A stretch of 64,000 nucleotides of DNA, from the NCBI GenBank assembly GCA_964511075.1, contig CAZEDM010000008.1, forward strand, positions 34,470 to 98,469, in the 5' to 3' direction. This document shows, in pieces, positions 27,203 to 62,934 of the stretch. Position 1 is the first letter of the stretch. Each line of letters begins with the position of its first letter. Under the pieces are notes generated by a model. The model was not told the DNA's origin, ran no database searches, and was given only the letters and a program-made list of their open reading frames with translations. The position numbers were made by a program, and so were the translations under genes. The stretch is from an uncultured Ignavibacteria bacterium. Lineage in GTDB: Bacteria > Zixibacteria > MSB-5A5 > RBG-16-43-9.

Positions 27203-27215
27203 AAAGATCGTTTTA

Positions 27216-29389: not shown

Positions 29390-29391
29390 GG

Positions 29392-30543
29392 TTATAATCT
29401 CCTTTCTTTGAGGGTTCCGGGGCTACTTTCAGGGTAGGCTCGGCCGTCATCGTGGCAATTTCCACAGGAGGGTTTATCCTCGAACCTTCTTTCCACATGG
29501 CACTCTGCGCAGTCCAGCTCCTGGTGGATTTCGTCCAGGACCAATCCGGTTACAGTATGATCAAAGTTCTCGGTGTTCCAATTGCTATGGCAGGAAACGC
29601 ACGCCGGTTTAAGTTTGGTTAACTTGCGCCCGGCGGGATGACAGGAGCGGCAGCTGAGAGCCTGGTGAAATCTATTCAATGGCCATCCGGTTCGAGCATG
29701 GTCAAAACCTTTCCTCTCACTCTGAGCATGACAGATGGAGCAGGTTTTCATGGTGTGACAGGTGATGCAAGGTTTGTGGTGCTCTTTGGAGGTTTTCATT
29801 GCCGGTTCAGGTTCTTCCCCTACCTCATGACAGCGAGTGCAGCTCTGCTCACTATGACAATTCACGCATTTAAGCTCAAACAGCTCCACATGATCTTTGT
29901 GATGGAAGGTTACCACCGGGCCATTGGCGTAGTTTGTATGATAGACTTTTTTGTCCGGCACGGTTATAGTTGGATGCTTTGTCCCGATAATATCGGTGGT
30001 GTCGATCTTTTGCATAGACATCTCTCCAGGTGTTTTTTTTGCATGACAGATATCGCAGGCAGTGCTGTGGCTCCATTCCCTGTGACAGTTCATACATTGA
30101 CGATGATAAGCTCCCTTGAGCCCGGGCTGACGCAGATCCTCCGGATTTAAAGGGCCACCGTGGCACTCCCTGCAGGGAGGTATGTGACCGGGAGGAGCAT
30201 AGTGGTGGCAGACTGCACATCCTTGACCCATCTCCGCCATTTCAGCATGCAGCTTATGGGCGAATATCACCGGCTTAAACAAATCCTCAAGCTGATTTAA
30301 GATAACCACCTCTGGCCCTTCTTCAGGAGTATGGGGACTCATTTTCTCGGGAAAGCGAGGACAGGACCGGAGACAAGGGTCATTTTTAGTAGGAGTAAAA
30401 CAGATATGGCAGTCACTGCAGGTTGCGTCTGCCGGGAACTCATGAGCAGGTTCGTTTTTCTCTCCCATACTGCTTGTAGAAACCAGGAGAATAAAAATAC
30501 CCGTAGCCAAGATGCTACTCATAACCATTTTGCTGAACACCAC
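29392..30543 (-). CDS. Periplasmic multihaem cytochrome c with 13 CxxCH motifs
   Basis: Signal peptide. 13 CxxCH motifs counted in 383 aa. First gene of a tightly coupled three-gene module. Confidence 0.85.
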   Translation of the reverse strand: MVFSKMVMSSILATGIFILLVSTSSMGEKNEPAHEFPADATCSDCHICFTPTKNDPCLRSCPRFPEKMSPHTPEEGPEVVILNQLEDLFKPVIFAHKLHAEMAEMGQGCAVCHHYAPPGHIPPCRECHGGPLNPEDLRQPGLKGAYHRQCMNCHREWSHSTACDICHAKKTPGEMSMQKIDTTDIIGTKHPTITVPDKKVYHTNYANGPVVTFHHKDHVELFELKCVNCHSEQSCTRCHEVGEEPEPAMKTSKEHHKPCITCHTMKTCSICHAQSERKGFDHARTGWPLNRFHQALSCRSCHPAGRKLTKLKPACVSCHSNWNTENFDHTVTGLVLDEIHQELDCAECHVERRFEDKPSCGNCHDDGRAYPESSPGTLKERRL

Positions 30544-30574
30544 ATCTCCTTTTTAGTTTTTATTTTACGTGTAT

Positions 30575-31246
30575 TTATTTTATATTAAAAAACTCTCTGG
30601 CTACCTTATTCCATTGTTGTATGGTTAATTCATCCCCTAAATCAGGTTTGATCTCGCCTCCCTCCTGTAACACTGGAAATTCAGCCGGGACTAATACTGA
30701 TATTAAATGCTCTTTGGCAGCCTGATTCCAACGTTTAAGCAGTTCACCAGAAAGAAGATTTCTCAGTTCTCGAGAGAGATTAATCGGTTCAATTTTTAAA
30801 ATCCAGTTCTTTTCCGGGTCCTCACGATTCAGAAGGATTGGCTCCTCAGCCAGTTTTTTATTGACCTCCACAACCCTTCCACTAATAGGGGAGGCCTGAA
30901 CCAATTCCCTATTGTCTCTTTTTATCTTCCAGGCGCTGCTTCCCTGGTATATTCTGTCCCCACGCTTAGGCAGTTCTATCTCTTTAACCGATCCGAAAAC
31001 CGAAGAGGTGAACTTATCCATGCCAATATTCACCAGGTTAGGCTGGATCACCTCTGCCCAGGTATGGTTTGGATGTGTGAACACTCCCCTGATCATCCTG
31101 GAAGCTTCAGTCATAAATTGTCTCACCGGGCGGTAGACAGGGGTATTTAACAATCTCCAGAAAAGAATGATTATAAACATGAAGGCGATAGCTATCAGGT
31201 ACTCATTAGCTTTGGTAGCAAGTAAGAATTCTTGAAGAGTTTGCAT
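30575..31246 (-). CDS. Membrane-anchored GcvH-like (lipoyl-domain fold) protein, paralog A
   Basis: N-terminal transmembrane helix. HTWAEV...IGMDKFTSSVFGSV...PISGRVVEVNKKL...NWILKIE aligns with GcvH (HEWV...VGITD.AQ...PVSG.VV.VN..L...GWL.K). No Lys at the lipoylation position. Confidence 0.5.
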   Translation of the reverse strand: MQTLQEFLLATKANEYLIAIAFMFIIILFWRLLNTPVYRPVRQFMTEASRMIRGVFTHPNHTWAEVIQPNLVNIGMDKFTSSVFGSVKEIELPKRGDRIYQGSSAWKIKRDNRELVQASPISGRVVEVNKKLAEEPILLNREDPEKNWILKIEPINLSRELRNLLSGELLKRWNQAAKEHLISVLVPAEFPVLQEGGEIKPDLGDELTIQQWNKVAREFFNIK

Positions 31247-31312
31247 ATAAAGCTCCTTTGATGAGGTATCTTCTTAAAAAAACCTGTTTACCTTTATCCT
31301 TATATCTATGGC

Positions 31313-31972
31313 TTAATCCGTTGAGTCAAAAAACTCCCGGTTGACCTTCTCCCACTGTTCGGAGGTTAATTCGTTCCCCAGGTCAGATTTAATTTCCCCG
31401 CCCTCCTGCAGGACAGGAAATTCTGCCGTGGTCAAAGTAGCTACGAGCTGATCCTTAACCGCCTGATTCCAGCGCTTCAGGATGGTTCCGTGTAGCAGGT
31501 TCTGGAGCTCTCCTTTCATTCTATCCGGTCTGATTTTTAATATCCAATTCCTTTCAGTATCCTTCTGGGTTAAAAGCTTAGGATTATCCGCCAGCTCCTG
31601 GTTTAAAGCCACCACCGTGCCGCTAATGGGTGAAGTCTGAGTCAACTCTCGGTTTCCCCTTCTTAATAACCAGGCTTTTTCTCCCTGATGAATCCGGCTT
31701 CCCACAGGAGGAAGAGATAACGCCTCGACTGAGCCGAAAACTGATGTGGTGAAATCGTCCACTCCCACTGTAATTAAACTGGGATCGAGAACCCTGACCC
31801 AAGCATGACCTGGGTGCACGAAAATTCCCTCTAAGGCGGAGGGGAGCTTCAACTTGGTGGTCAAGGGGGTTTTCTCTTCTGCTGGGGCAACGGCCTTTCT
31901 TTGACGCCAGATACCAATTCCTATGGCTAAAGCCACGAAAAGTAAAATAAGGATTACCGACATTTCAATCAC
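31313..31972 (-). CDS. Membrane-anchored GcvH-like protein, paralog B (tandem duplicate of 30575-31246)
   Basis: About 45% identical to paralog A by eye. HAWVRV...VGVDDFTTSVFGSV...PISGTVVALNQEL...NWILKIR. Confidence 0.5.
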   Translation of the reverse strand: MIEMSVILILLFVALAIGIGIWRQRKAVAPAEEKTPLTTKLKLPSALEGIFVHPGHAWVRVLDPSLITVGVDDFTTSVFGSVEALSLPPVGSRIHQGEKAWLLRRGNRELTQTSPISGTVVALNQELADNPKLLTQKDTERNWILKIRPDRMKGELQNLLHGTILKRWNQAVKDQLVATLTTAEFPVLQEGGEIKSDLGNELTSEQWEKVNREFFDSTD

Positions 31973-31998: not shown

Positions 31999-32094
31999 TC
32001 ATCGTGTTTCGGTAACTTCAATCTTTTTTCTTCCACGCAACAAACCTATCCCCATTGCTAACACAGTGAAAAGCAAACCTAATAATATTGACAT
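31999..32094 (-). CDS. 31-aa single-transmembrane micro-ORF resembling the membrane anchors of the GcvH-like paralogs (possible remnant of a third copy)
   Basis: Own translation MSILLGLLFTVLAMGIGLLRGRKKIEVTETR; compare MSVILILLFVALAIGIGIWRQRK of the 31313 gene. Not in the supplied ORF track (below its length cut-off). Confidence 0.25.
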   Translation of the reverse strand: MSILLGLLFTVLAMGIGLLRGRKKIEVTETR

Positions 32095-32687
32095 TTTTGC
32101 TCACCTGACCTTTCTATTAGAAAGGAACACTTGTCTGTACTCATTGTAAATAAGGGCAAATAGAGTGCCGCAAAACCTACCATCTAAGATGGTATCTGCT
32201 AAGTCCCAGAATCATATGAGATTATCGTACAATGTATATAAGGAAAGTTAGAATTATTCAAAATTTTTAGCGCAAGCACGTTGAAAATTTCTACAGAGTA
32301 TTTGAGGTTGAATGTTGGATTATTAGTAATTACAGTGCTGTCAATATCTTAGTAATTGTAGAGAAATTCAACATCAAGTGGCGTTTATTTCCACATTTTT
32401 CTTTTATTTAACTATAGTATCAAAAAATTACTCATCCTTAGTCAGAGATCAAGGCATTAAAAAAATTGTTGCTGAGGTCAAACACGGTTTTCTTACAAAT
32501 TGATAAATTAGATCTATGTGATATTAATTGATTCTCTAAGTGGAAGAAAAGAAAAGAATTACGAGGAGGAGAATTTCGAATTGACTTCTCAATTTTCATT
32601 ATTTTTTTTCTTATTTTTTTAAAAAAAAGCTTGACATTATGATATCCGTCATATAAAATAAGATGAATGAGATATGGTTAATCAATT

Positions 32688-32705
32688 TTGTGAAAAAAAT
32701 CACAA
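32688..32705. promoter_or_regulatory. Candidate Rex operator TTGTGAAAAAAATCACAA
   Basis: TGTGA-N6-TCACA matches the Rex operator consensus (TTGTGAA-N4-TTCACAA) with one half-site mismatch. 82 bp upstream of the 32787 start. A possible -35/-10 pair (TTGACA ... TATAAA/ATAAAA, spacing ambiguous at 15-16 nt) lies at 32630-32660. Confidence 0.5.
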
Positions 32706-32786
32706 TCTCATATAAGGAGGTGGTAATCAACAAAATCAGATTTCTGTAGAGAACAAAATACGCCTGAACCCTAAGGAGGAAAGAAT

Positions 32787-35438
32787 ATGAGTAATAGAAA
32801 AAGGATTTTGATTGTTACCTGCTTTTTGATTTTTATGGGCTTTCAATTATCTTCAGCCGCATCTCCCGTGGCTAAAATAAGGCTTTTGGCTTATTCAGAA
32901 AGAGACCTTGCCCTTGATACCACTTTGACAAGAACTTCGACCGGGTTGCCTAATGTAGGTGTTGGGAGTATGGTTTATTTTACTGCTAATCCTGAGGAGC
33001 CCGGTGCTTATACTTATACCTGGACTCTTAGCACCCCTCTTGGTTCCTCCACCACCCTGAGCGATGATGCTATACAGAATCCTACTATGGTTCCGGATTT
33101 GGAGGGAACTTATATAGTTACTCTGGTGATAGCAGATACCTCTGGAACAAGCGATCCTGATACGATGTATATCAGTGCCGGAACCTGGGTGGGCACAGGG
33201 CAAATAGGCGGGATGACCCCGCATTGGCCCCAGTGTGGCTTCTTCTGCCATAATGATAAGATCGCCGAATGGGAGGAAACCGGACACGCTGTTATCTTTC
33301 AGCAAGGTTTAGACGGGATAGCCAGTAGCCACTATGGTTCAAGTTGTATCAGCTGTCACACGGTTGGATATGATACAGACCCGGCCGCAGATAATTTCGG
33401 CTTTGATGATGTGGCAACATTATTAGGCTGGACCTTCCCGGATACTCTATTTCCTGGTCAGTTTGATTCCCTGGTAATCAATTATCCGGATTTAGCTAAC
33501 TTGGGAAATATCCAGTGTGAGAACTGTCATGGTCCGGGTAGCAGGCACGGCGGAGAGGACAGATGGAACAGGATTGCGGTTAGCTATGGATCCGGGGTCT
33601 GTGCCTATTGTCATGACTCAGGCACTCATCATATAAAACCTTATCAGTGGGATTATTCCAGGCATCCATTTGCAGTAGGGGAACATGATCACATGAACCG
33701 AACTTCCTGCTCCAGATGTCATACTGCTCAGGGTTATATAGACGAGACCATAAACGGAGGTTCCTCCGGTGCACCTTATAAGTACGCGGAGGGTGTAACC
33801 TGTAGCGCCTGCCATGACCCTCACAGCGATGCCAATGAGTATCAGCTCAGGAGAGCAGAGGTTTACGGTGTTTGTTACGACTGTCATACGCTAAGAGTCA
33901 GCAGTCACGGGATCCATCATTCGCACCAATCCGATATGTTAGAAGGAAACAGCGGATACGAGTACCCAGGAGAGCTGTATCCGGTTGGGAGTCATACTTA
34001 CACAACCGAGAAATGCGTGGGATGTCATATGGCAACATCTCCTGCGGATAGCCTGGTCACCAAGGTGGGCGAGCATACCTTTGCGGTCTTCTCAGACAAC
34101 GGGACTCCGGACGACTCTACTGATGACATCCTGAATGATGAGGGGTGCAAGGGATGTCATGGCAGTGTAAGCCTGGTTTTCCTCAGGAAAAGTCAGGAGA
34201 AATTTGTGAATCTACTTGATTCGCTGGCAGCTTTACTTCCCAAGGATGGAAGTGGTGAGGTCATTAGCCATACGGAAGATGATCTTCTGACCCTGACTGA
34301 AATAGGAGGAGCTTACAACTACTATTTTGTGCTGGATGACGGAAGTTATGGCACACACAACCCCAGATATGCGGAAAAACTCTTATGGGATTCCATTAAG
34401 AGGTTAGTAGCTCAGATGCATGCCGGGGACATAGTGGAGATATCGGATGTGCCTAATGATCAGGGCAAACAGGTGAGGATCCTCTGGAATATGTTTGCCG
34501 GCGAGGACGATGTCGATCATCCGGTCACTCAATATGGGATCTGGCGAAGAGATGAGTCCTCTACCGCAAAAGCTTTGACTGGGAAGGTGAATACCTTCAA
34601 GGAGTTGCTCTCCTACTATCCTAACATAGAAGCCGGAGCTACCTTCTCGGTGGCAGGGACGATCTGGACTTTCTTGGGCTCAATCCCGGCCTCCCATCAT
34701 GAGCGTTATGGTTATGTAGCTCCTACTCTTTTTGACTCCACCATTGTTTCCGGAATGCAGTGGTCAGTTTTCTACGTATCCGGTCATACGGCTGACCCTG
34801 GCATCTTCTACGAGTCCTACCCGGATAGCGGATATTCAGTGGACAACCTGGTTCCCGCTCCTCCCACCGGCCTGGCAGCTATTATTCAGGGGCGGAATGT
34901 CCAGTTGAGCTGGGATGACTCTTCGGATCCTGATTTTGACTACTTTGCCGTCTATAGAAGCACTACCCCGGGATTTACCCCCTCTCCGGCTAACCGTATA
35001 GGCTATAGTTCCAATCCCGAGTATGTGGACTCCAATTTAGTTAATGGAACTCATTATTATAAATTAACCGCCACCGATTTCTCTGGAAACGAAGGAGGTC
35101 CATCGCTTGAGCTTCCGATTAACATCACCTCAGTCAGGGAGGAAGAGGGAGCTGTGCCCAAGGTGTTTGCCCTGTTCCAGAACTATCCCAATCCCTTCAA
35201 CCCGTATACTCAGATCAAATTCTCCGTGGCTAATAGAACTAAGGTGGGACTCTCGGTTTACAATATCCTGGGACAGAGGGTGAAAACTCTACTGGATGAA
35301 GAGATGGAAGCAGGGAATTATGTGGCTACTTGGGACGGAAAGGATGAGAAAGGATATGATGTCTCCAGCGGAATCTATTTCTACAAACTGAATACCAAGG
35401 AGTTCACCCAGACCAAAAAGATGCTTCTGGTCAGATAG
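32787..35438 (+). CDS. Secreted multihaem cytochrome c (8 CxxCH + 1 CX3CH) with fibronectin-III domain and T9SS-type C-terminal sorting domain
   Basis: Signal peptide. Haem motifs include CGFFCH. FN3-like PAPPTGL...LSWDDSSD...YRS. C-terminus FALFQNYPNPFNP.T.I.F......VGLSVYNILGQRV..L.........WDGKDEKG..VSSGIYFYKL......TKKMLLV is the Por/T9SS CTD pattern. Confidence 0.85.
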   Translation: MSNRKRILIVTCFLIFMGFQLSSAASPVAKIRLLAYSERDLALDTTLTRTSTGLPNVGVGSMVYFTANPEEPGAYTYTWTLSTPLGSSTTLSDDAIQNPTMVPDLEGTYIVTLVIADTSGTSDPDTMYISAGTWVGTGQIGGMTPHWPQCGFFCHNDKIAEWEETGHAVIFQQGLDGIASSHYGSSCISCHTVGYDTDPAADNFGFDDVATLLGWTFPDTLFPGQFDSLVINYPDLANLGNIQCENCHGPGSRHGGEDRWNRIAVSYGSGVCAYCHDSGTHHIKPYQWDYSRHPFAVGEHDHMNRTSCSRCHTAQGYIDETINGGSSGAPYKYAEGVTCSACHDPHSDANEYQLRRAEVYGVCYDCHTLRVSSHGIHHSHQSDMLEGNSGYEYPGELYPVGSHTYTTEKCVGCHMATSPADSLVTKVGEHTFAVFSDNGTPDDSTDDILNDEGCKGCHGSVSLVFLRKSQEKFVNLLDSLAALLPKDGSGEVISHTEDDLLTLTEIGGAYNYYFVLDDGSYGTHNPRYAEKLLWDSIKRLVAQMHAGDIVEISDVPNDQGKQVRILWNMFAGEDDVDHPVTQYGIWRRDESSTAKALTGKVNTFKELLSYYPNIEAGATFSVAGTIWTFLGSIPASHHERYGYVAPTLFDSTIVSGMQWSVFYVSGHTADPGIFYESYPDSGYSVDNLVPAPPTGLAAIIQGRNVQLSWDDSSDPDFDYFAVYRSTTPGFTPSPANRIGYSSNPEYVDSNLVNGTHYYKLTATDFSGNEGGPSLELPINITSVREEEGAVPKVFALFQNYPNPFNPYTQIKFSVANRTKVGLSVYNILGQRVKTLLDEEMEAGNYVATWDGKDEKGYDVSSGIYFYKLNTKEFTQTKKMLLVR

Positions 35439-35460: not shown

Positions 35461-35497
35461 AAAACCGACCCTGGCCTTCACATGGGTCGGTTTTCTT
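35461..35497 (+). terminator. Rho-independent terminator after the T9SS cytochrome gene
   Basis: AAAACCGACCC-loop-GGGTCGGTTTTCTTAT. Confidence 0.5.
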
Positions 35498-35849: not shown

Positions 35850-37163
35850 GTGAAGAAAAAGATATTTTTCCTGGGAACAGCAACCCTGATTATCTTAGGA
35901 TTATTCGGATGCACTAAAAATAAATTTAAACCTACCAGTTCACAGCCTATAGATATCCCCTACTATAATTCAGCTAATGATTCCTGTTTTGTCTGCCATA
36001 ACGACCCATCTTTAAAAAAGACCATCGGAGCAGAGACGGTCCCGCTTTATGTTGACCGTGAGAGATTCGCCCGCTCCATTCACCGGGCTAATCGATGTCT
36101 GGATTGCCATACGGACATAGTTTTCTATAAAGGGCATTCCGAGGCGGTGAAGACCTATGGGGGCTGGGCAAATTTCAGCGCCGAGGATACCAGCCAGACC
36201 AGAAATTATCACACCAGCGCCTCCATCTCCTGTGGTAACTGTCATACAGATCAATCAGGTTTCTTCTCAAGTCAGCATTATCTGATCGAGGATATTAAGC
36301 AGTCTCGCCAGGAGACTCACGATGGTATGGAGATAGGCAAGGATTATGATGAGGCCAAGTGTGGTAAATGCCATCTTACCTGTGCCACCTGTCATTTTAA
36401 AGGTGAGAGAGTTCAACAGAATTTTGGAGAGATAACTGATTATTGGAGTCAATTATTAACAGGCAATCAGGTTCCAGGAGCAGATGAGATGACCGACTGG
36501 TCGATCGACTGGACCACCAACATTGAATCGCACGATTTTGCTAAAGCTGAGGATCTAGAAGGTTCGAATGATTTGTGCCGGGTATGTCACACAGGTTATT
36601 ATACCCAGTACGGGGTCCGTGGATTCCCGAACTCAGATACGCTGGTTCACGATATGATAACCAGCCAGGGGGTGGTGAAATATCCTCAATATGAGGAGTG
36701 GAGCTTTCTAAAAGGTGATATTAGTGTAATGACAGGGGTTTCTTATTTAGATTCGATATATGCACGAATGGGAAATTCAGACCATTACTCTCGGAAATGC
36801 ATCGACTGTCATGATAAAATTCATTCCTTAACGCCCATCACTTGCTTGAAGTGTCATGCTGATAAGGTAATTCCGAAGGGCAGAGAGCATTCTGATGTGG
36901 GTTGTGAGGCTTGTCACGATGCTACGATGAAGCCGTTCAGAGTAAACTATTCAGTATTCCCCCGGGCTGACACCGTGAGAGCAGCAGCAATTAAAGATAA
37001 TAAAGTCATAGATTGGCGCTCCCATATGATTGTTGATCCGAGGAATACGTTAGGAGTTCCTGATTTCTGTATCTATAAATGCCATAATCCGGTGGGGCAA
37101 GGTACGGTTGGTGCTCCCAAGAACTTTGAGATAATGGAAATTCATGATCAAGATGATAAATGA
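35850..37163 (+). CDS. Multihaem cytochrome c lipoprotein (9 CxxCH + 1 CX3CH)
   Basis: GTG start. Lipobox LFGC. Motifs CFVCH, CLDCH, CGNCH, CGKCH, CATCH, CRVCH, CIDCH, CLKCH, CEACH, CIYKCH. Confidence 0.85.
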   Translation: MKKKIFFLGTATLIILGLFGCTKNKFKPTSSQPIDIPYYNSANDSCFVCHNDPSLKKTIGAETVPLYVDRERFARSIHRANRCLDCHTDIVFYKGHSEAVKTYGGWANFSAEDTSQTRNYHTSASISCGNCHTDQSGFFSSQHYLIEDIKQSRQETHDGMEIGKDYDEAKCGKCHLTCATCHFKGERVQQNFGEITDYWSQLLTGNQVPGADEMTDWSIDWTTNIESHDFAKAEDLEGSNDLCRVCHTGYYTQYGVRGFPNSDTLVHDMITSQGVVKYPQYEEWSFLKGDISVMTGVSYLDSIYARMGNSDHYSRKCIDCHDKIHSLTPITCLKCHADKVIPKGREHSDVGCEACHDATMKPFRVNYSVFPRADTVRAAAIKDNKVIDWRSHMIVDPRNTLGVPDFCIYKCHNPVGQGTVGAPKNFEIMEIHDQDDK

Positions 37164-37169
37164 GGAGAG

Positions 37170-38394
37170 AATGAAGCGAAAGGTCATTTTAGTTCTAAGT
37201 TTATTGAGCCTCTTTATTTTCAAGAATGGTCAGGCTGTTGAGCTTAAAGCCAACATCTCCACCTGCTTTAACTCCTATCAGACTCAGGACCTTTATACTG
37301 AGGAGAAGACCTCTTACCTCAGAGCTTATCAGAGTTTCAGGTTTGATTTAACAGAATTGGGAACAAAAGACCTGTCCTTTCACACTTATTTTCGCTCCAC
37401 TACAGATCTTCTCCATGAGAATTCCACTGATCCCTCCACAAAAATTTATAACGCCTATCTCAACTGGAAAAATATCAAGAAGGTATTAGATTTAAGATTA
37501 GGCAGGCAGTTTCTGTATGCGGGAGTGGGGAATGCGACTATGGACGGTTTGAGATTGGATCTCAAACCCAAGCAAAAGCTTCAGCTGACCGCATATGCGG
37601 GGTTTCAACTTCCCCGGTATAAATGGACCAAAATAGATACCTGGGAGAAAAGCCATATTTTCGGCGGCGAGATATCAACCACATATCTGAAAAATACCAG
37701 ATTGGCTGTAAGCTATGTTCAGAAAGAAAGAGAGAAGGCTTTGGAGGAGCATTTGATCGGGATCAATGCCGCTCACCTTTATAAAAAACTTGATTTCTAC
37801 AGCCAGTTTTATTATAACCTGGTTTACAAGAAAGTTCAGAACTTAACCTTGAGAGGAGCCTGCTCAAGGCTTTGGGATAAACTCTACCTCTCACTGGAAT
37901 ATCAATTCCGCAGACCCAGCATATACTCCAACTCTATCTTCAGCGTTTTCAAACAGGAGAGTTATTCCATTTTCAGGTTCTCAGGCTCCTATCAGCTATT
38001 GAGAGATCTCAGATTCTCTTCGGAGTATGATCTGACCCTCTACGAGTCGGATAACTCCGCTCGCACAAGACTGGGGATAGAATATGCCTTTATAGGTCTG
38101 GGAGTTAATTTCAGAAGAGGATACGGCGGGGAGAACAATGGGGTTTATGGGAAACTGGTGTATTCCCTTAAGAGGAATTTAATCTTGTCAGCCTGTGCTG
38201 ATTACGGCAAGTACAAGCTGGATGAGGAACAGGAAAGCACAGACGAGTCGTTCATACTTTCCTCGAGACTGGAATGGGAGCCCTTGAGAAACTTCAGGTT
38301 TGCACTGGAGCTTCAGGATTTAAGGAATAAAGTCAAAAGCTACGACTTCAGATTCCAGGGAAGGGCAAGCTATAGATTCGGGCTTTCATTTTAA
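37170..38394 (+). CDS. Putative outer-membrane beta-barrel protein (porin-like component of a porin-cytochrome conduit)
   Basis: Signal peptide (MKRKVILVLSLLSLFIFKNGQA). Alternating amphipathic beta-strand pattern. C-terminal ...YRFGLSF ends in Phe. GAGGAG ribosome-binding site 4 nt before the ATG at 37170 (the longest ORF would start at 37144). Confidence 0.55.
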
Positions 38395-38440
38395 GATTCG
38401 GGGAAGGGATTTGTAGAACAGGACATAAAAAGGAAATGGG

Positions 38441-39493
38441 ATGAGATTTTCAGGCAGAGTTTTCATAGGAACACTTCTGACCATGGTGTTCAGCTGGATA
38501 ATGTTCTCAGCGCTTTTCGCCAGCTTGGAGATACCCAAAAGCGACATCATATTTTCGCATAAGAAACACTCAGACCAGCCCTGCACCAACTGCCACCCTC
38601 AGATAGAGGAGAGTGATAAAGCCGGCGATAAAAACCTTCCCTCTATGGATATCTGCACCGAATGCCATGATGGCGAGATGTTGCCGGGCGAATGTTCGGT
38701 CTGCCATAGAGATAAGGAGAACCCCCAGGCACTGGTCAACCCCCAGAGGGATTTTATCTTCTCTCACCAGAAACATCTGCAGAGGAAAACAGAGTGTTCT
38801 TTCTGTCATGGTGACGTGAGCAATAAGGATAAGCTGGATTCCGGGAATATGCCGGATATGGGGAAATGCTACCAATGTCATGAGGGGTTCAAAGCACCAA
38901 ATAACTGCGAGCTCTGTCATACGGAGATGAATTTGAGAAAATATCACCCGGATGACTGGCAACACGCCCACCAATTTCAGGCGGAAATTAAAAAGGAGAA
39001 GTGCATCCAGTGTCACCAGAAGGAGGACCTCTGTCAGAAATGTCATCAGGGAGATAACCTGCTTCAAACCACTCATCCGCTGAACTATTATTATACTCAC
39101 GGACTGGATGCCAAATCCAAAGAAAAGGATTGTCTGTCCTGTCATCTCACCAAGGAGTTCTGCGATAACTGTCATTCCCAAGAAGGTGGAAAACCTTTGA
39201 ACCATTCTATCCCGGGCTGGGGTTTTTCTGGAAAACATGGAGAGTTTGCCAGAAAAGATATGGAATCATGCGCTTCCTGTCACGATACGGCTGACCCTAT
39301 CTGCACCTGGTGTCACCAGGATAAGAATCCCGGCAGAGGGAATGACCATAATATCCACCCTGCGGGTTTTGCCTCCAGTTTGGATAAAGGACCCTGGCAT
39401 GAGGACGAGGGGTATTTCTGCTACGAGTGTCATACTAAAGGACTTAAAGCAGGAGAAGGGTTCTGCGGATATTGCCATGGAGACGGAGATTAA
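38441..39493 (+). CDS. Multihaem cytochrome c with 14 CxxCH motifs
   Basis: N-terminal signal/anchor. 14 CxxCH in 350 aa, many preceded by distal-His FSH.KH segments (c3/c7-like repeats). Confidence 0.85.
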   Translation: MRFSGRVFIGTLLTMVFSWIMFSALFASLEIPKSDIIFSHKKHSDQPCTNCHPQIEESDKAGDKNLPSMDICTECHDGEMLPGECSVCHRDKENPQALVNPQRDFIFSHQKHLQRKTECSFCHGDVSNKDKLDSGNMPDMGKCYQCHEGFKAPNNCELCHTEMNLRKYHPDDWQHAHQFQAEIKKEKCIQCHQKEDLCQKCHQGDNLLQTTHPLNYYYTHGLDAKSKEKDCLSCHLTKEFCDNCHSQEGGKPLNHSIPGWGFSGKHGEFARKDMESCASCHDTADPICTWCHQDKNPGRGNDHNIHPAGFASSLDKGPWHEDEGYFCYECHTKGLKAGEGFCGYCHGDGD

Positions 39494-39601
39494 CCCAGAA
39501 GTTTTTTCACTTGACATAATCTCTTATTTTAGATATAATCAGAACTAAAATTGTCTTTTTTGTGAAGAAAATAACAAGTATCACAAAAGAGAGATTGATT
39601 G

Positions 39602-40054
39602 ATGGCTGAAGAAGGCGAAAAGAAAATCTCCAGGCGGTCTTTTCTGGACCGTCTTATAGTCGGCTCTATGTTCGTATCTGCCTTAGCAGTGCTTGGCTCA
39701 GTTTTGACCTATATTTACCCGCCGAAGAAAGAGGGTGGGGCAGAAAGAGCAGAGAGGGTTGAGGTTGCCTCTTTAGCTGATCTACCTGTTGGCAAAGCCA
39801 AGCCGGTGGTATATCAGAACAAAAATGTCATGGTGATGCACGTGCAGGCTGGGCTTTTTGCCGTGAGTATGAAATGCACTCACCTGGGGTGTATGGTGGA
39901 ATGGGAGGAAGGTCCTCAGACCTTGAAATGTCCCTGCCATGCCGCCTTTTTCGACTATCAGGGAAAGGTGATCTCTGGCCCTGCACCCAAGCCCCTCCCC
40001 GCCTATAAGGTAGAGGTGGCAAATGATATCATATACGTTACCGGATTAGCCTAA
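39602..40054 (+). CDS. petA: Rieske [2Fe-2S] subunit of a cytochrome bc-type complex
   Basis: Tat-like SRRSFLDRL plus transmembrane helix. Rieske boxes CTHLGC and CPCH. Confidence 0.85.
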   Translation: MAEEGEKKISRRSFLDRLIVGSMFVSALAVLGSVLTYIYPPKKEGGAERAERVEVASLADLPVGKAKPVVYQNKNVMVMHVQAGLFAVSMKCTHLGCMVEWEEGPQTLKCPCHAAFFDYQGKVISGPAPKPLPAYKVEVANDIIYVTGLA

Positions 40055-40056
40055 GG

Positions 40057-40800
40057 ATGGATGAGAAGGGAAAAAAGATAGGTCCGAAACTCAAACGCTG
40101 GACTGAGGAGAGATTCAACCTCAGGCAGTTGGTGGGTGTTCTTTTAAATATATTCCCGGTGATCTATGGGGAATTAGATCAGAGATTAGACGTAAAAGAG
40201 GGGTTGCAAAAACTACTCAAGAAGCCGGTACCCAAGGGGTTAAGCTTTCTGCATTGTTTCGGGGGAATGACCTTTCTTCTGTTTGTGATTCAGGTCTTTA
40301 CCGGTATACTTTTAGCCATATATTATAAACCTTCAGCTGCAGATGCCTACACCAGCGTCAAATACATCACCGATACAGTGCCCCTGGGCTGGCTGATAAG
40401 GCAGATCCATGCCTGGGGTGCGAATCTGATGGTAATCACCATGTTCGTACATATGCTGAGGGTGTATTTTCATGGTGCCTTTAAAAATCCCAGGGAGCTG
40501 AACTGGATGGTGGGGACGGTTTTGTTTATACTCACCTTAGCTTTTGGATTTACCGGCTATCTTCTTCCCTGGGATCAGAGGTCCTACTGGGGTACAACCA
40601 TAGGGACTGAGGTAGCAGGCGGTGTTCCCTTTATCGGTAAATATCTTCTGATTATCCTGAGAGGCAGCCTCAACGTGACCGGTGATACTTTAACCCGGTT
40701 TTATTCTGTGCATGTCCTTATACTTCCCTGGGTGACAGCTCTTTTTCTGGCGCTTCATTTCGCCATGGTGAAAAGGCAGGGGGTTGCCAAACCTCTGTAA
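40057..40800 (+). CDS. petB: Cytochrome b6-like subunit (N-terminal half of split cytochrome b)
   Basis: Four-helix cytochrome b N-terminal pattern with conserved His pairs (RQIHAWGANLMV...FVHMLRVYFHGAF; GYLLPWDQ.S.W). Confidence 0.8.
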   Translation: MDEKGKKIGPKLKRWTEERFNLRQLVGVLLNIFPVIYGELDQRLDVKEGLQKLLKKPVPKGLSFLHCFGGMTFLLFVIQVFTGILLAIYYKPSAADAYTSVKYITDTVPLGWLIRQIHAWGANLMVITMFVHMLRVYFHGAFKNPRELNWMVGTVLFILTLAFGFTGYLLPWDQRSYWGTTIGTEVAGGVPFIGKYLLIILRGSLNVTGDTLTRFYSVHVLILPWVTALFLALHFAMVKRQGVAKPL

Positions 40801-40837
40801 AAATAGTGAGAAGTTAAAGGGAATACGAAGGGATAAG

Positions 40838-41326
40838 ATGGAAGCAGAGAAAGAGAAGAAAAACAATGAGGGGATGGAAGAGGGAAAGCCTTTTTATCCT
40901 AATCATTTCCTGAAGGAAGTTATCGTAGCTTTCCTTCTTTTTGGGGTTCTCCTAAGCTTAGCTGTTTTTTTCCCCTTTCCTTTTCATGAGAAAGCTAATC
41001 CCTTTCAAACCCCTGAGGGGATCAAGCCGGAATGGTATTTTCTGGCTGGGTATCAGATGTTGAAATATGTGCCTAAGGTGGTGGGGATTGTGGGGATAGG
41101 AATTGTGATGGTTATTCTTTTTATAGTTCCCTTCCTTGAAAGAAGTCCAGAACGTCATCCTTCGAAAAGGAGATTTGCCCGAGCGATTGGTGTGGTGGTG
41201 ATAATTTTCGCTGTCCTCTTTTCACTCTTGGGCTATCTATCTGAATCGACTCAGACTGTTTTGGGAAAGAAATATCATTTCGATCTAAAAGGGGTTCCCT
41301 ATAAAGTTGAGGAGCCAAAAAAATAG
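40838..41326 (+). CDS. petD: Subunit IV-like protein (C-terminal half of split cytochrome b)
   Basis: PEWYFLAGYQMLKYVPK matches the cytochrome b C-terminal/subunit IV PEWY motif. Three transmembrane helices. Start placed at the ATG after the petB stop. Confidence 0.7.
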   Translation: MEAEKEKKNNEGMEEGKPFYPNHFLKEVIVAFLLFGVLLSLAVFFPFPFHEKANPFQTPEGIKPEWYFLAGYQMLKYVPKVVGIVGIGIVMVILFIVPFLERSPERHPSKRRFARAIGVVVIIFAVLFSLLGYLSESTQTVLGKKYHFDLKGVPYKVEEPKK

Positions 41327-42583
41327 ATGAGAAGGGACATTTTTAGAAAAATCAGCCTGCTGGTAATAACCGTTTTTTTCTTCTATAGGCCTGTCCTTCC
41401 CCAGGACATTGAATCGTATTCCTGTATGGTCTGTCACGGTGAAAAGAAGGTGGAATATCTGAAGAGCATCCATTGGGAGAAGGAGATGTGGTGCGCTGAT
41501 TGTCATGGTGGAGACCCTTCCAGCCTGGATCCAGAGGTTTCCATGTCAGCTAGGGCCGGGTTCAAGGGAAGGTTTACCAAAAAAGAGGTGGTTTACCTGT
41601 GCGGAAATTGTCACGCGGACAAAAAAAGGATGAGACAATACGGGATATCCACTGATCAGTTAGATTATTACCGTACGAGTGAGCATGGAATAGCTCTTCT
41701 TAAAAAGAACGATCCGAGTGTGGCTGGATGCGTGGACTGCCATGGTAGCCACAGCATTACCTCCGTGAAAGACCCGGAGAACAAGGTTTTCCCCACTAAT
41801 CTTCCCCAGACTTGCGCCATGTGCCATTCGGACAAAAAACTCATGGAGAAATATGGTCTGCCTTACAATACCTTAGAGGAATATGTCTCAAGCGTTCACG
41901 GTAAGGCGCTTTTGGAGAAAAACGACAGGTCAGCTCCTACCTGTGCAGGTTGTCACAGTAGCCATGGTGCAGCTCCTCCTGGTGTTACAGAGATAGAGAA
42001 TGTGTGCGGGAAATGCCATATCAATTCAGAGACGAATTTCGCCAAGAGCCCACATCTGGAGGCTATGAGGAAGATGAATCTGTCACAGTGCGCCTCCTGC
42101 CACCAGCATCACTCTATTAAATATCCAGATATATCCATGTTCGATCAGGTATGTTCAAATTGCCACGAGCCCGGATCAGGCGCCTATAAGAGAGGACAGC
42201 AGATAAAAGCTCTGATCCTGGAGGCACAGGACCAGATACAGAAGGCAAAGGAGTTAATCCAGAAGGGCAAATCCAGGGGACTGGATGTCTCTCAGTTCGA
42301 GCCTGAATTGGAACAAGCCAATACCGCCATGTTGCAGGTTCTGCCAGTAACTCACAGTCTGGTCCTCTCTAAGGTCGAGGAGATAACCAGCAGCGCCAGA
42401 ACCTTAGCCGGAGAGATATCCGCTTCCGTTCACAACTATCTGGAATCATTACGCCTGAGAAAGGTGGGGTTAGGGATTGTCTGGCTTTTTATCTTTTTCG
42501 TGGTGGTGATATTGTATATAAAGGTGAAGAGGGCAGATAGTGAATTCGAATTAGCTCAGCAAAAAAATAAAGGAAAAGACTGA
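41327..42583 (+). CDS. Membrane-anchored 9-haem cytochrome c, the likely c-type subunit of the bc complex
   Basis: Nine CxxCH. C-terminal transmembrane helix LGIVWLFIFFVVVILYI. Start abuts the petD stop. Confidence 0.8.
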   Translation: MRRDIFRKISLLVITVFFFYRPVLPQDIESYSCMVCHGEKKVEYLKSIHWEKEMWCADCHGGDPSSLDPEVSMSARAGFKGRFTKKEVVYLCGNCHADKKRMRQYGISTDQLDYYRTSEHGIALLKKNDPSVAGCVDCHGSHSITSVKDPENKVFPTNLPQTCAMCHSDKKLMEKYGLPYNTLEEYVSSVHGKALLEKNDRSAPTCAGCHSSHGAAPPGVTEIENVCGKCHINSETNFAKSPHLEAMRKMNLSQCASCHQHHSIKYPDISMFDQVCSNCHEPGSGAYKRGQQIKALILEAQDQIQKAKELIQKGKSRGLDVSQFEPELEQANTAMLQVLPVTHSLVLSKVEEITSSARTLAGEISASVHNYLESLRLRKVGLGIVWLFIFFVVVILYIKVKRADSEFELAQQKNKGKD

Positions 42584-47933: not shown

Positions 47934-48005
47934 TGAGGGTGGATGGGATCGAACCATCGGCCACCTGCTTAAAAGGCAGATGCTCTACCACTGAGCTACA
48001 CCCCC
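47934..48005 (-). tRNA. tRNA-Lys (anticodon TTT)
   Basis: Manually folded. Acceptor GGGGGTG/CACCCTC, D-arm GCTC-AGTGGTA-GAGC, anticodon arm TCTGC-CTTTTAA-GCAGG (positions 34-36 = TTT), T-arm GATGG-TTCGATC-CCATC, discriminator A. No encoded CCA. Confidence 0.85.
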
Positions 48006-59528: not shown

Positions 59529-60884
59529 TCAGGAGCGAATCAGATTCAAAATCTCCGATTTTCTTTGTTCCAAAAGCTCCCTGGTATTAGCCTCCAAATT
59601 CAGGCGGAGCAAGGGCTCGGTATTGGAAGGTCTGAGGTTAAACCACCAGTCAGGGAATTCCACCGTGAGCCCATCCAAATGGTCTATTTTGGCATCCTTA
59701 TAATGTGACTGGATCATTTTTAGCTTCTGGGGGATATCTTCCACCCTGGAGTTTATCTCCCCTGTCCTGAAATAGGGGTCGATTGAACCTACCAGCTGAG
59801 ACAGTGGCTTGTTTTCCTCTGAGAGAAGCTCCAGGCAGACCAGAAGCGCTATCAAACCTGAATCAGCATAGTAGTTCTTTCGAAAATAGAAATGACCGGA
59901 ATGTTCACCTCCAAAGACGGCATTATATTTTTTCATCAGGGGTTTTATCAGAGCATGCCCCACGGGCGTGCGGATACCCTTTCCTCCGTTCTGCCTGATT
60001 ATCTCGGGAACAATCCTGGAACAGGGTACATTATATAATATGGTTGCCCCCTTCTCCTTCTTTAACAGGTTCTTGGCCACAAGTGCTGTGATTATATCTC
60101 CACCTAAGGGAGAAGCTTTCTCATCCACCAGGAACATACGGTCTGCATCTCCATCAAAAGCCACACCCAAATCTGCTTTCTCTTCTAAAATTCTATCTTT
60201 TAAAGATGCGATGTTCTCGGGTATTATGGGATTAGGCAGATGATGAGGAAAAGTGCCATCCAGCTCAAAGAACATAGGGATAATCTCGCAGGGAAGATGA
60301 GAAAAAAGTTCTGGAAGAACTTTGCCCGCAATTCCGTTCCCGGCATCGATGACTATCTTAAAGGGCTTGATCTTCATATCTTTGAGGAAGGACAGAAGGT
60401 GCTGGATATAATCTTTTTGAATGTCTTTCTTTTGAATAACCCCTTTTCTCTTAGAAACCAAAAAATCCTTTTTTAAAATCAGGTCCCTGATCTGCTCTAT
60501 TCCCTCTTTGCCGCTCAAAGGAACTGCCTCCTTTCTGCACATCTTCATCCCGTTATACTCGGGTGGATTATGGGAAGCAGTGATCATAATGCCGGAATCG
60601 TATCCGAATTTACCAACCGCAAAATATAAAGCGTCAGAGGTACATAAGCCCATATCTATCACATCCGCGCCTGTTTCGGTTATCCCGCGGGCAAGATTTC
60701 CAAACAAAGCCTCTGAGGAGAGACGCATATCCCGGCCTATAGCTACATCCTTGGGTTTTAGATATTGCACAAAAGCCCTCCCCACAAGATAGGCAATCTC
60801 ATCATTTAGTTCTGTGGGGTATATCCCCCTGATATCATAAGCCTTGAATATTACAGGATTTACTTTCATCTCTCCTTCTCCCAT
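59529..60884 (-). CDS. Phosphoglucomutase/phosphomannomutase (alpha-D-phosphohexomutase superfamily)
   Basis: Active-site TASHNPPEYNG, metal loop DGDADR, sugar-binding GGEHSGH. Confidence 0.8.
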   Translation of the reverse strand: MGEGEMKVNPVIFKAYDIRGIYPTELNDEIAYLVGRAFVQYLKPKDVAIGRDMRLSSEALFGNLARGITETGADVIDMGLCTSDALYFAVGKFGYDSGIMITASHNPPEYNGMKMCRKEAVPLSGKEGIEQIRDLILKKDFLVSKRKGVIQKKDIQKDYIQHLLSFLKDMKIKPFKIVIDAGNGIAGKVLPELFSHLPCEIIPMFFELDGTFPHHLPNPIIPENIASLKDRILEEKADLGVAFDGDADRMFLVDEKASPLGGDIITALVAKNLLKKEKGATILYNVPCSRIVPEIIRQNGGKGIRTPVGHALIKPLMKKYNAVFGGEHSGHFYFRKNYYADSGLIALLVCLELLSEENKPLSQLVGSIDPYFRTGEINSRVEDIPQKLKMIQSHYKDAKIDHLDGLTVEFPDWWFNLRPSNTEPLLRLNLEANTRELLEQRKSEILNLIRS

Positions 60885-61035
60885 TTTATCCTACAACTCT
60901 TGTATTAACTATAAGACTAAAAGGTATTTTTGTCAAATCTTTCTTTAAGATTCTGACTCCTTAAATAAACCTCCTTTGGGATAAGCCCTGGTCGTTGATT
61001 TTCTGCTTGACAGGGGTTCAATTATATGATAAAAT

Positions 61036-61053
61036 ATGTGAAAGGATTCACAA
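61036..61053. promoter_or_regulatory. Rex operator ATGTGAAAGGATTCACAA overlapping the rex promoter (autoregulation site)
   Basis: TGTGA-N6-TCACA with full TTCACAA half-site. Preceded by TTGACA (61007-61012) and TATGATAAAAT (-10-like). 5 bp upstream of the rex ATG. Confidence 0.55.
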
Positions 61054-61057
61054 GAAA

Positions 61058-61684
61058 ATGCGCCGGATCTCAGAGTCTACAATACACAGGTTATCACTTT
61101 ATTACAGAACCCTGGCAGATCTCCGCAGGGAGCATCTTACCACTGTTTCCTCCAGAGAGCTTGCCAGAAGAAATAAATTTACCCCTGCCCAGGTAAGAAA
61201 AGACCTCTCCTTTTTTGGAAGTTTCGGCACCAGAGGCTTGGGTTATCCTGTGGAAGAGCTTAGAGATAAGATCGCATCTATCCTGGGCTTAAGCAAGACC
61301 TGGAACGTAGCTTTAGTAGGGGTAGGGAATGTGGGTTCGGCATTGGTCTCCTATAAGGAGTTCCAGAGACAGGGTTTTGTCATAAAAAAGATTTTCGATA
61401 ACGATCAGCGTAAAATAGGTAAGAATCACAAGGGGATCTTGGTCTTGGACGTGAGAGACCTGGCCAGAGAATTGAGAGAGGGTAGAATCGAGATGGCGAT
61501 CATCGCTGTTCCCGCCTCAGGGGCTCAAAAGGTAGTGGATGAGATAATAAATGCAGGAGTACGCACCATTCTGAATTTCGCCCCCACTCATCTTAAGGTA
61601 CCGGAAAATGTGGTCCTGCGCTCGGTTAATATGGCGATGGAGCTGGAGCACCTCTCTTTTGCCTTAACTAACCAGAAGTCTTAA
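61058..61684 (+). CDS. rex: Redox-sensing transcriptional repressor Rex
   Basis: N-terminal winged helix (RLSLYYR.L), Rossmann NAD(H) domain GVGNVGSAL. Start placed at the internal ATG 61058 because the operator/promoter lie inside the longest ORF (60995). Confidence 0.8.
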   Translation: MRRISESTIHRLSLYYRTLADLRREHLTTVSSRELARRNKFTPAQVRKDLSFFGSFGTRGLGYPVEELRDKIASILGLSKTWNVALVGVGNVGSALVSYKEFQRQGFVIKKIFDNDQRKIGKNHKGILVLDVRDLARELREGRIEMAIIAVPASGAQKVVDEIINAGVRTILNFAPTHLKVPENVVLRSVNMAMELEHLSFALTNQKS

Positions 61685-61689
61685 GAAGG

Positions 61690-62934
61690 CTACAGCTCTC
61701 TTATTCTTTTCACCAGAAGCCCCCCTAATCCGCCGAAGGCAATGAAAACCCCGCTTAGAAAAATTATCATCTTAATATGCAAAAGACCGCCTAAAACTCC
61801 AATCAACGCCAAGGAAATTGGTCTCAGGCCCCCGCTTATGGTTCCCAAGGTGCCAAAGACCCTGCCTTGCTTCTCATGGGGGATCTTAGTCTGGAAAACA
61901 GCCGGAACCAGTATGTTGGCGAAAGAGACCCCAAATCCACAACCGCCTAAAAGGAAGATAGAAGTCCAGAAAGATTCTGAGATGCCGAACAGGGCTAAAA
62001 AAACTCCAGCTACGATTATTCCCGTGGTTATAAAACCTCCCTTGCTTCTCACCCCTCCGATCATTCCCAGAAAAAGTGAACCCAATACCATTCCCACGGA
62101 TATGCTTGAGCCCAGAACTCCGAACCCCTCCGCACCCCTGTTCAATATATTTTTAACCACAAGGGGTATCAATACACCTACCGGAGCCACAAAGAAGTTG
62201 AGAAGAGAAAATAGGATCACCAGTCCCAATATTCCAGATTCGGTCCGGATAAAATTAAGTCCCTCCAGAAGATCATGGGTAAATTTTTTTCTTTCAGTTT
62301 GAATAGGGACCTGCTCCGTTTTTATTCTCACAAAGAATATGGCAACAACGGAGAGAAAAAAGCTTAGAGCATCCAAAAACATCACTGTTCCCGCTCCAAT
62401 AAGAGCAACCAGAATTCCACCTAAGGCAGGTCCCAGAACTCCACTTAGATTGTTACTCATCTGGGACAGGGAATTAGCCCGAACCAGCTTGCCTTTGTCC
62501 ACGATGCGAGGTATAAAGGAGTTTAGAGCCGGGTTGAAAAATATTGTCATAGATGAAAGCAGGGCCGCGATTATAAATATATGCCAGACCTGTAGATGAT
62601 TTAGGAAGTAAAGTATGCCGGGGATACAGATTATTATCCCTCTGCCGAGATCCATTAAGATTAGAAGCTTTCTCTTATCTACCCTGTCCACAAAGGTTCC
62701 GGCAAAAGGACCCAGGATAATAGTTGGGAGTGAGGAGCAGATGGCAACGGATGCCATGGCAGCAGTGGAGCCGGTCTTCTCCAGAACCCACCACATCAAA
62801 GCTATTATATAGAGATAATCGCCAAATAGGGAGATGCTCTGACCTATCCAGATCAGGAAGAAATTCTTATTTCTGAATATTGACACGGAGTTTTCATTTA
62901 GTGTCTCCGATATTTTACCTGCCAGGTTTTCCAT
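61690..62934 (-). CDS. MFS transporter
   Basis: 12 predicted transmembrane helices; 414 aa; MFS-like loop motifs. Confidence 0.75.
   Translation of the reverse strand: MENLAGKISETLNENSVSIFRNKNFFLIWIGQSISLFGDYLYIIALMWWVLEKTGSTAAMASVAICSSLPTIILGPFAGTFVDRVDKRKLLILMDLGRGIIICIPGILYFLNHLQVWHIFIIAALLSSMTIFFNPALNSFIPRIVDKGKLVRANSLSQMSNNLSGVLGPALGGILVALIGAGTVMFLDALSFFLSVVAIFFVRIKTEQVPIQTERKKFTHDLLEGLNFIRTESGILGLVILFSLLNFFVAPVGVLIPLVVKNILNRGAEGFGVLGSSISVGMVLGSLFLGMIGGVRSKGGFITTGIIVAGVFLALFGISESFWTSIFLLGGCGFGVSFANILVPAVFQTKIPHEKQGRVFGTLGTISGGLRPISLALIGVLGGLLHIKMIIFLSGVFIAFGGLGGLLVKRIREL

Follow-up and report, generated by a model that had tools for sequence, protein, structure and literature searches.

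The locus at 61007-61684 raises the question of whether a short gene, whose promoter is joined directly to an 18-bp inverted repeat, encodes a redox-sensing repressor that controls its own expression, and whether the same repressor reaches other redox genes nearby. We analysed it within 64,000 nucleotides (hereafter the window) of contig CAZEDM010000008.1 from an uncultured member of the Zixibacteria (assembly GCA_964511075.1, positions 34,470 to 98,469, forward strand). Our answer, which we hold with high confidence, is that the locus would be a monocistronic, self-repressed rex gene with its own 18-bp operator at the transcription start (+1), with a gene for a secreted multihaem cytochrome very probably, and an operon for a bc-type complex possibly, under repression by the same protein. 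Family membership, the presence and non-randomness of the operator, the promoter geometry and the conservation across genomes are established here from sequence comparison.

The open reading frame (ORF) at 61058-61684 on the + strand encodes a protein of 208 amino acids, and the gene is rex, for a redox-sensing transcriptional repressor. Specifically, Pfam searches recognised the Rex-type DNA-binding N-terminus, a winged-helix domain, at residues 4-51 (PF06971, 64.7 bits against a cut-off of 27), and the C-terminal Rossmann CoA/NAD-binding domain (PF02629, 81.6 bits). The NCBIfam Rex models were passed above their curated cut-offs (NF003995, 266.1 bits against 126; NF003993, 256.4 against 217; NF003992, 239.2 against 226), two of these being equivalog models, and residues 2-207 aligned with model positions 4-209. 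Alignments to the solved Rex structures from T. aquaticus, T. maritima and T. ethanolicus were full-length (E ~1e-45) and reached residue 205-207 of the 208; in the Rex homodimer it is the C-terminal helix that is domain-swapped. The residues with which Rex contacts DNA are known from the Rex-DNA structure 3IKT. The recognition-helix motif RKDLS is kept in the window protein (AQVRKDLSFFG, compared with FQVRKDLSYFG in T. aquaticus Rex), as is the arginine of the N-terminal helix, which lies in HRL here and in SRL in the T. aquaticus protein. On the nucleotide-binding side, GVGNVG (GxGxxG) is found at residue 88, and the aspartate that binds the ribose of NAD(H) is retained (IFDND here, FFDVD in T. 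aquaticus Rex). The nearest database relatives are named Rex and come from candidate division Zixibacteria. By these alignments, the product of 61058-61684 is a member of the Rex family of redox-sensing repressors.

The original prediction had placed the start of rex at an internal ATG, 61058, and this placement was borne out. Were the true start instead the TTG at 60995, the protein would have 229 amino acids and the elements that we describe below as promoter and operator would be coding; the ORF is indeed open back to 60995, and some database relatives are annotated at 229 amino acids. We consider this exceedingly unlikely, and the 229-aa form was rejected on several grounds. The family models and the solved structures align from residue 2-4 of the 208-aa form, the public gene call for exactly this sequence has 208 amino acids, and no 229-aa version is present in the public collection. 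Additionally, one close relative (L007; loci of other genomes are numbered with an L throughout) has an in-frame stop nine codons 5′ of the ATG without an alternative start, and among the eight closest genomes the 5′ sequence is conserved at the promoter hexamers and associated elements only, and not by codon. Both the promoter and the operator fall inside the longer ORF. Two Rex homologues, P0003 and P0010, are annotated at 229 amino acids, which is the length of the long ORF in the window. Elsewhere, the Rieske protein of L062 is annotated at 182 amino acids (10001-10549), with an N-terminal extension that spans a TTGACA/TATAAT promoter and a box. The 229-aa annotations of P0003 and P0010 may represent the same kind of start-codon error as in this Rieske protein, and such errors, in which public calls run over promoters, are flagged here.

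Upstream of the ATG lies a sigma-70-type promoter, TTGACA-17-TAAAAT (61007-61035, + strand), which matches the consensus at 11 of 12 positions and has a 17-nt spacer between the -35 hexamer TTGACA (61007-61012) and the -10 hexamer TAAAAT (61030-61035). The 18-mer ATGTGAAAGGATTCACAA (61036-61053, no strand assigned) has one mismatch to the Rex operator consensus TTGTGAA-N4-TTCACAA; its first base is the one that follows the -10 hexamer, and the expected transcription start falls within it. It had been described as overlapping the -10/+1 region 5 bp before the ATG; the box is real and lies next to the -10 hexamer, and 4 nt, in place of the 5 given, separate it from the ATG. The proposal that this box is an autoregulatory operator gained support, in that a box with one mismatch sits in the rex promoter and is conserved and non-random among Zixibacteria rex genes. 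We regard rex as monocistronic, because the gene 3′ of it, for an MFS transporter (61690-62934), is convergent, and the gene 5′ of it, for a phosphoglucomutase/phosphomannomutase (59529-60884), is divergent and has its own promoter. The latter (60908-60936, - strand, TTGACA-17-TATAGT, 11/12) stands back-to-back with the rex promoter, and since the Rex box is ~100 bp from its -35 hexamer, co-regulation of the two genes is unlikely. In the clade of the window (the window and L001-L007) the rex leader is ~15 nt long and has no conserved Shine-Dalgarno (SD) sequence. In the other Zixibacteria (L008-L030) leaders run from 22 to ~60 nt or more, several with GGAGG-like motifs. The pattern implies a lineage-specific loss of the leader in the clade of the window and a predicted SD-less translation of rex there.

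How unusual such boxes are was assessed by scanning the entire window with TTGTGAA-N4-TTCACAA (18 bp). Two sites had at most one mismatch, where 0.018 would be expected per 64 kb from base composition; dinucleotide-preserving shuffles (n=100) gave a mean of 0.03 such sites, and none of the 100 gave two or more. The statement that two good matches are improbable by chance is upheld by these figures (two against 0.02-0.03 expected), although the accompanying description of a low-GC genome was overstated for a window of 44% GC. With three mismatches allowed the scan was not significant (7 found against 3.9 expected in the 64 kb), and all four of the 3-mismatch matches sit inside coding regions (long ORFs), so that our case rests on the sites with at most one mismatch. 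A position weight matrix (PWM) derived from the rex-promoter operators of other genomes (20 distinct sequences), which is strict and too sharp to judge the third site in the following ranking, gave 23.8 bits to the box at 61036, 19.9 bits to one at 32688 and 8.3 bits to one at 39560, with the next match at 3.1 bits or less. Chance origin is excluded for the two strong sites, 61036 and 32688, and the box at 39560 may be a chance match. The last of these, TTGTGAAGAAAATAACAA (39560-39577), had been missed in the original prediction, which counted only two boxes. Promoter-like sites matching at least 11 of 12 positions are scarce (six in the window, four of them on the + strand), and three of these four have one of the best three boxes downstream, at 0, 28 and 20 nt. 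The earlier observation that the boxes bracket redox genes has no functional meaning, as each box heads its own transcription unit.

We examined the rex operator in 45 Rex loci from a scan of species-representative genomes, comprising 31 loci from Zixibacteria (436,456 bases) and 14 from other bacteria (200 kb), with flanks of ~10 kb around the loci in the relatives and the 64 kb of the source genome. A box with at most one mismatch was found 5′ of rex in 29 of the 30 Zixibacteria loci that include the upstream region, and the remaining locus (L012) has a 2-mismatch box in the same place. All 29 sites with at most one mismatch in the 31 Zixibacteria loci were rex-promoter boxes, with none elsewhere in the 436,456 bases, and the 14 loci from outside the Zixibacteria held no site of this quality in 200 kb. 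The possibility, named beforehand, that such matches might be common at random positions therefore found no support in either set. In the latter loci (L032-L045, Calditrichota-like, Planctomycetota and others), there was no box within 150 nt 5′ of rex and no site with two or fewer mismatches in the flanks, so the autoregulatory arrangement is lineage-specific.

In an alignment of the eight closest genomes (81-85% Rex identity, together with the window), the columns without any change make up a footprint of a short run of T, CTTGACA, the greater part of TAAAAT, ATGTGAAAG, TTCACAA and the ATG. Five of the six positions of the -10 hexamer are invariant, the one substitution being in L005, while variation, or sequence that would not align, is seen in the promoter spacer, at the two bases in the centre of the box, in the 4 nt that precede the ATG and throughout the region 5′ of the -35 hexamer. 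Across the Zixibacteria more broadly, TTGACA is located 27-31 nt 5′ of the box, the box always abuts or overlaps the -10 hexamer, and its distance from the start codon ranges from 4 to ~60 nt. The more distant Zixibacteria mostly have a perfect TTGTGAA-N4-TTCACAA, and the TTCACA(A/T) form is found in every one of the 20 distinct rex-promoter operators of Zixibacteria. The geometry of operator and promoter is thus the conserved feature, and fits a DNA-level repressor site better than an RNA element. Because the boxes in these relatives occur only at rex promoters, and because only the promoter, the half-sites and the ATG are invariant, negative autoregulation, as for Streptomyces rex-hem, is the best reading of the locus.

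The second strong box, TTGTGAAAAAAATCACAA (32688-32705, no strand assigned, one mismatch), lies ahead of a gene for a secreted multihaem cytochrome c on the + strand (32787-35438; 883 amino acids and eight CXXCH motifs). This protein has a signal-peptide-like N-terminus and Pfam matches to Paired_CXXCH_1, Cytochrome_C7/C554 and Por_Secre_tail, the C-terminal sorting domain of the type IX secretion system (T9SS). Its promoter, TTGACA-17-TAAAAT (32631-32659, + strand, 11/12), has hexamers identical to those of the rex promoter and is among the six strongest promoter matches in the window. The box begins 28 nt 3′ of the -10 hexamer (~+22 to +40) and 81 nt before the cytochrome ATG, and a repressor bound there would be in a roadblock position. 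Its score of 19.9 bits was obtained with a PWM trained only on rex-promoter sites of other genomes. A terminator-like hairpin follows the gene (35471-35490) and the neighbours differ between genomes, so that the gene behaves as a monocistronic unit. A 28-aa ORF lying over the box (32663-32749) was judged spurious, as nothing supports it and its start would fall 4 nt beyond the -10 hexamer.

The cytochrome box is kept or replaced in four of the six distinct orthologous loci. Specifically, an identical box precedes the ortholog in L058 (85% protein identity), and in L056/57, L060 and L061 a box of the form TAGTGAA-N4-TTCACAT is found at a different position, 21-22 nt before the ATG. That the closest locus retains the box, and a more distant lineage has replaced it at a new position, speaks for a regulatory link that is real and evolving, and the second box of the original prediction accordingly stands, as a promoter-proximal site at a redox gene that is kept or replaced in several orthologous loci. 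We conclude that Rex very probably also represses the gene for this T9SS-sorted, 8-haem cytochrome through a predicted operator at 32688-32705. The sister Zixibacteria lineage carries a further Rex-like box (TGGTGAAATTATTCACAT or TAGTGAAATTATTCACAT; L056 8140-8157, L057 5685, L060 8453, L061 7302), located ~12 nt before a gene for a protein of 647 amino acids in which a multihaem cytochrome is joined to a cytochrome b561-like domain, so that the link between Rex and cytochromes reaches other cytochrome genes there. As a separate observation, an SD-like element, GGAGGTG(R)T (32717-32727 in the window), is near-invariant in the cytochrome 5′ leaders of seven orthologous loci (including L054, L056 and L058-L061); it lies 60-80 nt 5′ of the real SD and ATG, is followed by no start codon, and may serve as a standby site for ribosomes or have a regulatory role.

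The third candidate, TTGTGAAGAAAATAACAA (no strand assigned), has two mismatches to the canonical consensus, and one if the clostridial half-site TTAACAA is allowed; with this variant, the window contains three 1-mismatch sites against 0.11 expected. It is located 20 nt 3′ of the -10 hexamer of a perfect promoter, TTGACA-17-TATAAT (39511-39539, + strand, 12/12), that is conserved in six orthologous loci, and ~24 nt before the Rieske gene. The operon so headed (39602-42583, + strand) encodes a Rieske protein, the N- and C-terminal subunits of cytochrome b and a 9-haem cytochrome, as identified by the Pfam families Rieske, Cytochrome_B and Cytochrom_B_C, multihaem families and counts of haem motifs. 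TTGTGA and TAACAAG are invariant in six of six close orthologous loci, beyond which the downstream leader diverges. Rex possibly represses this Rieske/cytochrome b/multihaem operon through a putative weaker, hybrid operator at 39560-39577; taken by itself, the assignment of this box as a Rex site is tentative, and we lean slightly against it. Sites had also been envisaged ahead of the etfB, NrfD-module and bc-complex operons, and of these only the bc operon has one, a weak one. The regions upstream of etfB and of the NrfD module contained no site (best matches 4-6 mismatches), and across the wider set of upstream regions, namely those of etfB/etfA, the NrfD-module operon, ccmE/F, SOD, nadA and the cytochrome genes at 35850, 42671 and 51732, there was likewise no site (best 4-7 mismatches).

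Several observations weigh against a self-repressed rex with targets in the window, and we consider them here together with the explanations that would replace it. One is that the core TGTGA-N6-TCACA and its spacing are identical to those of CRP/FNR-family sites and are contained in the Rex box, such that the inverted repeats could belong to that family and not to Rex. An A after TGTGA and a T before TCACA, together with outer TT/AA, form the signature of Rex and not that of E. coli CRP, and all 20 distinct rex-promoter sites have it. Moreover, the three boxes of the window begin 0 to 28 nt 3′ of a -10 hexamer, which is the position of a repressor, and not at -41.5 or -61.5. Considering also that the box accompanies rex in 29 of the 30 Zixibacteria loci and is absent from the rest of the 436 kb, we find CRP/FNR sites very unlikely. 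The palindrome could alternatively act in RNA, as a 5′ stem-loop affecting the stability or translation of the rex mRNA, with no DNA operator involved, given that the repeat can form a 7-bp hairpin with the ATG 4 nt downstream. The leader of only ~15 nt without SD would itself be unusual for this genome, and counts against our main reading of the locus. Against an RNA role, the expected start near 61042 (the -10 hexamer ends at 61035) lies inside the left arm and would yield a transcript without that arm, the arms are invariant and not covarying across 30 genomes, a like sequence is present at two other promoters, and the cytochrome leader folds no better than shuffled controls (z = -0.68). 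We therefore judge action at the RNA level to be highly improbable.

A narrower alternative accepts the operator at rex and holds that it alone works, with the boxes at 32688 and 39560 being chance or non-Rex sequences and autoregulation occurring without a local regulon. Several observations that bear on this concern the bc operon. The 8.3 bits of the 39560 box compare with a simulated mean maximum of 8.4 and are no better than the best chance match, under a matrix too sharp for this site; conservation in the close clade extends over the entire promoter-proximal stretch around the box; and L048 and L062 have a 3-mismatch version, which we counted against it. In L063 and L064, whose bc operons come from more distant Zixibacteria, the promoter is kept without a box, and this lowered our confidence in the 39560 site. 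For the cytochrome gene, two of the six distinct orthologous loci (the ortholog lineages L054/55 and L059) have no box. Against this alternative, 32688 reached its high score with an independently trained PWM, is the only site outside rex with at most one mismatch in the window, a class that was found nowhere in the 436 kb around rex in the other genomes, follows one of the six strongest promoters of the window by 28 nt, and is conserved or replaced in most of the orthologous loci, as described above. We thus consider an operator confined to rex to be unlikely, and a self-repressed rex with the cytochrome gene as a very probable target remains our preferred reading.

In the mechanism that we propose, binding of Rex, its response to NADH, the direction of regulation and the transcription starts are carried over from characterised Rex proteins. 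At low NADH/NAD+, a Rex dimer on the inverted repeat would block open-complex formation or promoter escape at the rex promoter, the block being at +1 for rex and taking the form of a roadblock at ~+14 to +40 for the cytochrome and bc promoters. When NADH rises, it would bind the Rossmann domain in competition with NAD+, the dimer would close and leave the DNA, and transcription would resume. The accumulation of reducing equivalents would in this manner lead to more of the proteins that serve as outlets for respiratory electrons, while autoregulation would restore the level of Rex. Whether Zixibacteria Rex in fact couples NADH/NAD+ to a T9SS-exported multihaem cytochrome, and perhaps to the bc-type complex feeding it, is a proposal on which we are evenly divided. 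If true, an uncultured phylum would have an outlet for extracellular electron transfer under the control of redox poise, and the operators would turn over between lineages.

Comparison with characterised systems places the arrangement closest to familiar ground in Streptomyces, where TTGTGAANNNNTTCACAA is the sequence bound by Rex and the repressed genes are rex-hemACD, cydABCD, nuo and atp. The Rex footprints of S. avermitilis fall within promoters or 3′ of them; NADH weakens the binding there, and repression affects rex-hemAC1DB, cydA1B1CD, nuo and atp (PMC5355995). The cydA1 operator of this species, ATGTGAACGCGTTCACAA, lies 3′ of the transcription start and has A for T at its first position, as here (PMC5355995). 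The ROP operators of S. coelicolor and S. avermitilis share with the window the 18-bp consensus TTGTGAA-N4-TTCACAA, and further parallels are found in a rex that is autoregulated at its own promoter (a prediction in our case), in targets within the respiratory chain and in operators in or just downstream of the promoter. Several features differ. Rex of Streptomyces heads a haem-synthesis operon, whereas rex in the window is monocistronic; the S. avermitilis rex operator lies between the -35 and -10 hexamers and takes in the -35, whereas that of the window abuts the -10 and covers +1; and the Streptomyces targets are cytochrome bd and NADH dehydrogenase, whereas the candidates in the window are c-type multihaem cytochromes and a bc-type complex. 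The host, unlike Streptomyces, is an uncultured member of the FCB (Fibrobacterota-Chlorobiota-Bacteroidota) group.

Among other bacteria, S. aureus Rex has the consensus TTGTGAAW4TTCACAA and its binding is lowered by NADH (PMC2883068). The Rex proteins of S. aureus and B. subtilis are repressors released by NADH (PMC2883068), a class to which the window protein would by analogy belong; they have the same domain architecture, and their consensus is that of the window box, including the A/T-rich centre. Their regulons center on fermentation and NAD+ regeneration (ldh, adhE, pfl), whereas no such boxed genes were seen in the window. In Desulfovibrio, predicted Rex sites include conserved ones at the cytochrome c3:menaquinone oxidoreductase (PMC4045070), and the regulon (sat, qmoABCD, qrcABCD and others) provides the parallel of a Gram-negative anaerobe with targets in energy conservation, as in the window; however, phylum and targets are different, and the regulatory effects there are mild and partly unconfirmed (PMC4045070). 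The clostridial Rex motif is given as TTGTTAA-N4-TTAACAA (Ravcheev et al. 2012 as quoted in PMC5367854). As quoted, its variant half-site TTAACAA corresponds to aTAACAA on the right side of the 39560 box, and a hybrid operator is plausible on that account; the distinct rex-promoter operators of Zixibacteria, by contrast, carry TTCACA(A/T) in 20 of 20 cases.

Rex, its operator and its autoregulation are textbook knowledge, and the rex finding leaves the understanding of how Rex works unchanged; what is new is the lineage and the likely targets. In the literature searched, no paper joined Rex and Zixibacteria, and a search on Rex with multiheme and extracellular electron transfer gave no paper with the Rex phrase among the matches listed. 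Our analysis extends a canonical Rex operator and predicted autoregulation, backed by conservation, beyond the groups that studies of Rex have covered (Gram-positive bacteria, Thermotogae and Desulfovibrio). For an uncultured phylum it also provides candidate targets, the T9SS-sorted 8-haem cytochrome and possibly the bc-type complex, and these could guide the reading of metatranscriptomes and the annotation of respiratory and extracellular electron-transfer genes in Zixibacteria.

Finally, we noted several features in the surroundings of these genes. The only match of an Rfam scan across the whole window was a tRNA gene (47934-48005, - strand). After the T9SS cytochrome, the region 35850-39493 contains genes for a lipoprotein-like cytochrome with 9 haems, for a secreted protein of 416 amino acids that matched no Pfam family, and for a 14-haem cytochrome, a layout that resembles a porin-cytochrome module for extracellular electron transfer as judged from its gene content; this cluster has its own promoter-like site and no Rex box. 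On the opposite side of the cytochrome gene, an operon on the - strand (26366-31972) combines three glycine-cleavage-H-like (lipoyl-carrier-like) proteins of 219-278 amino acids with a 13-haem cytochrome c3, a 4Fe-4S protein and an NrfD membrane subunit, an unusual combination, and a hydrophobic ORF of 31 amino acids (31999-32094, - strand) is located just 5′ of it.

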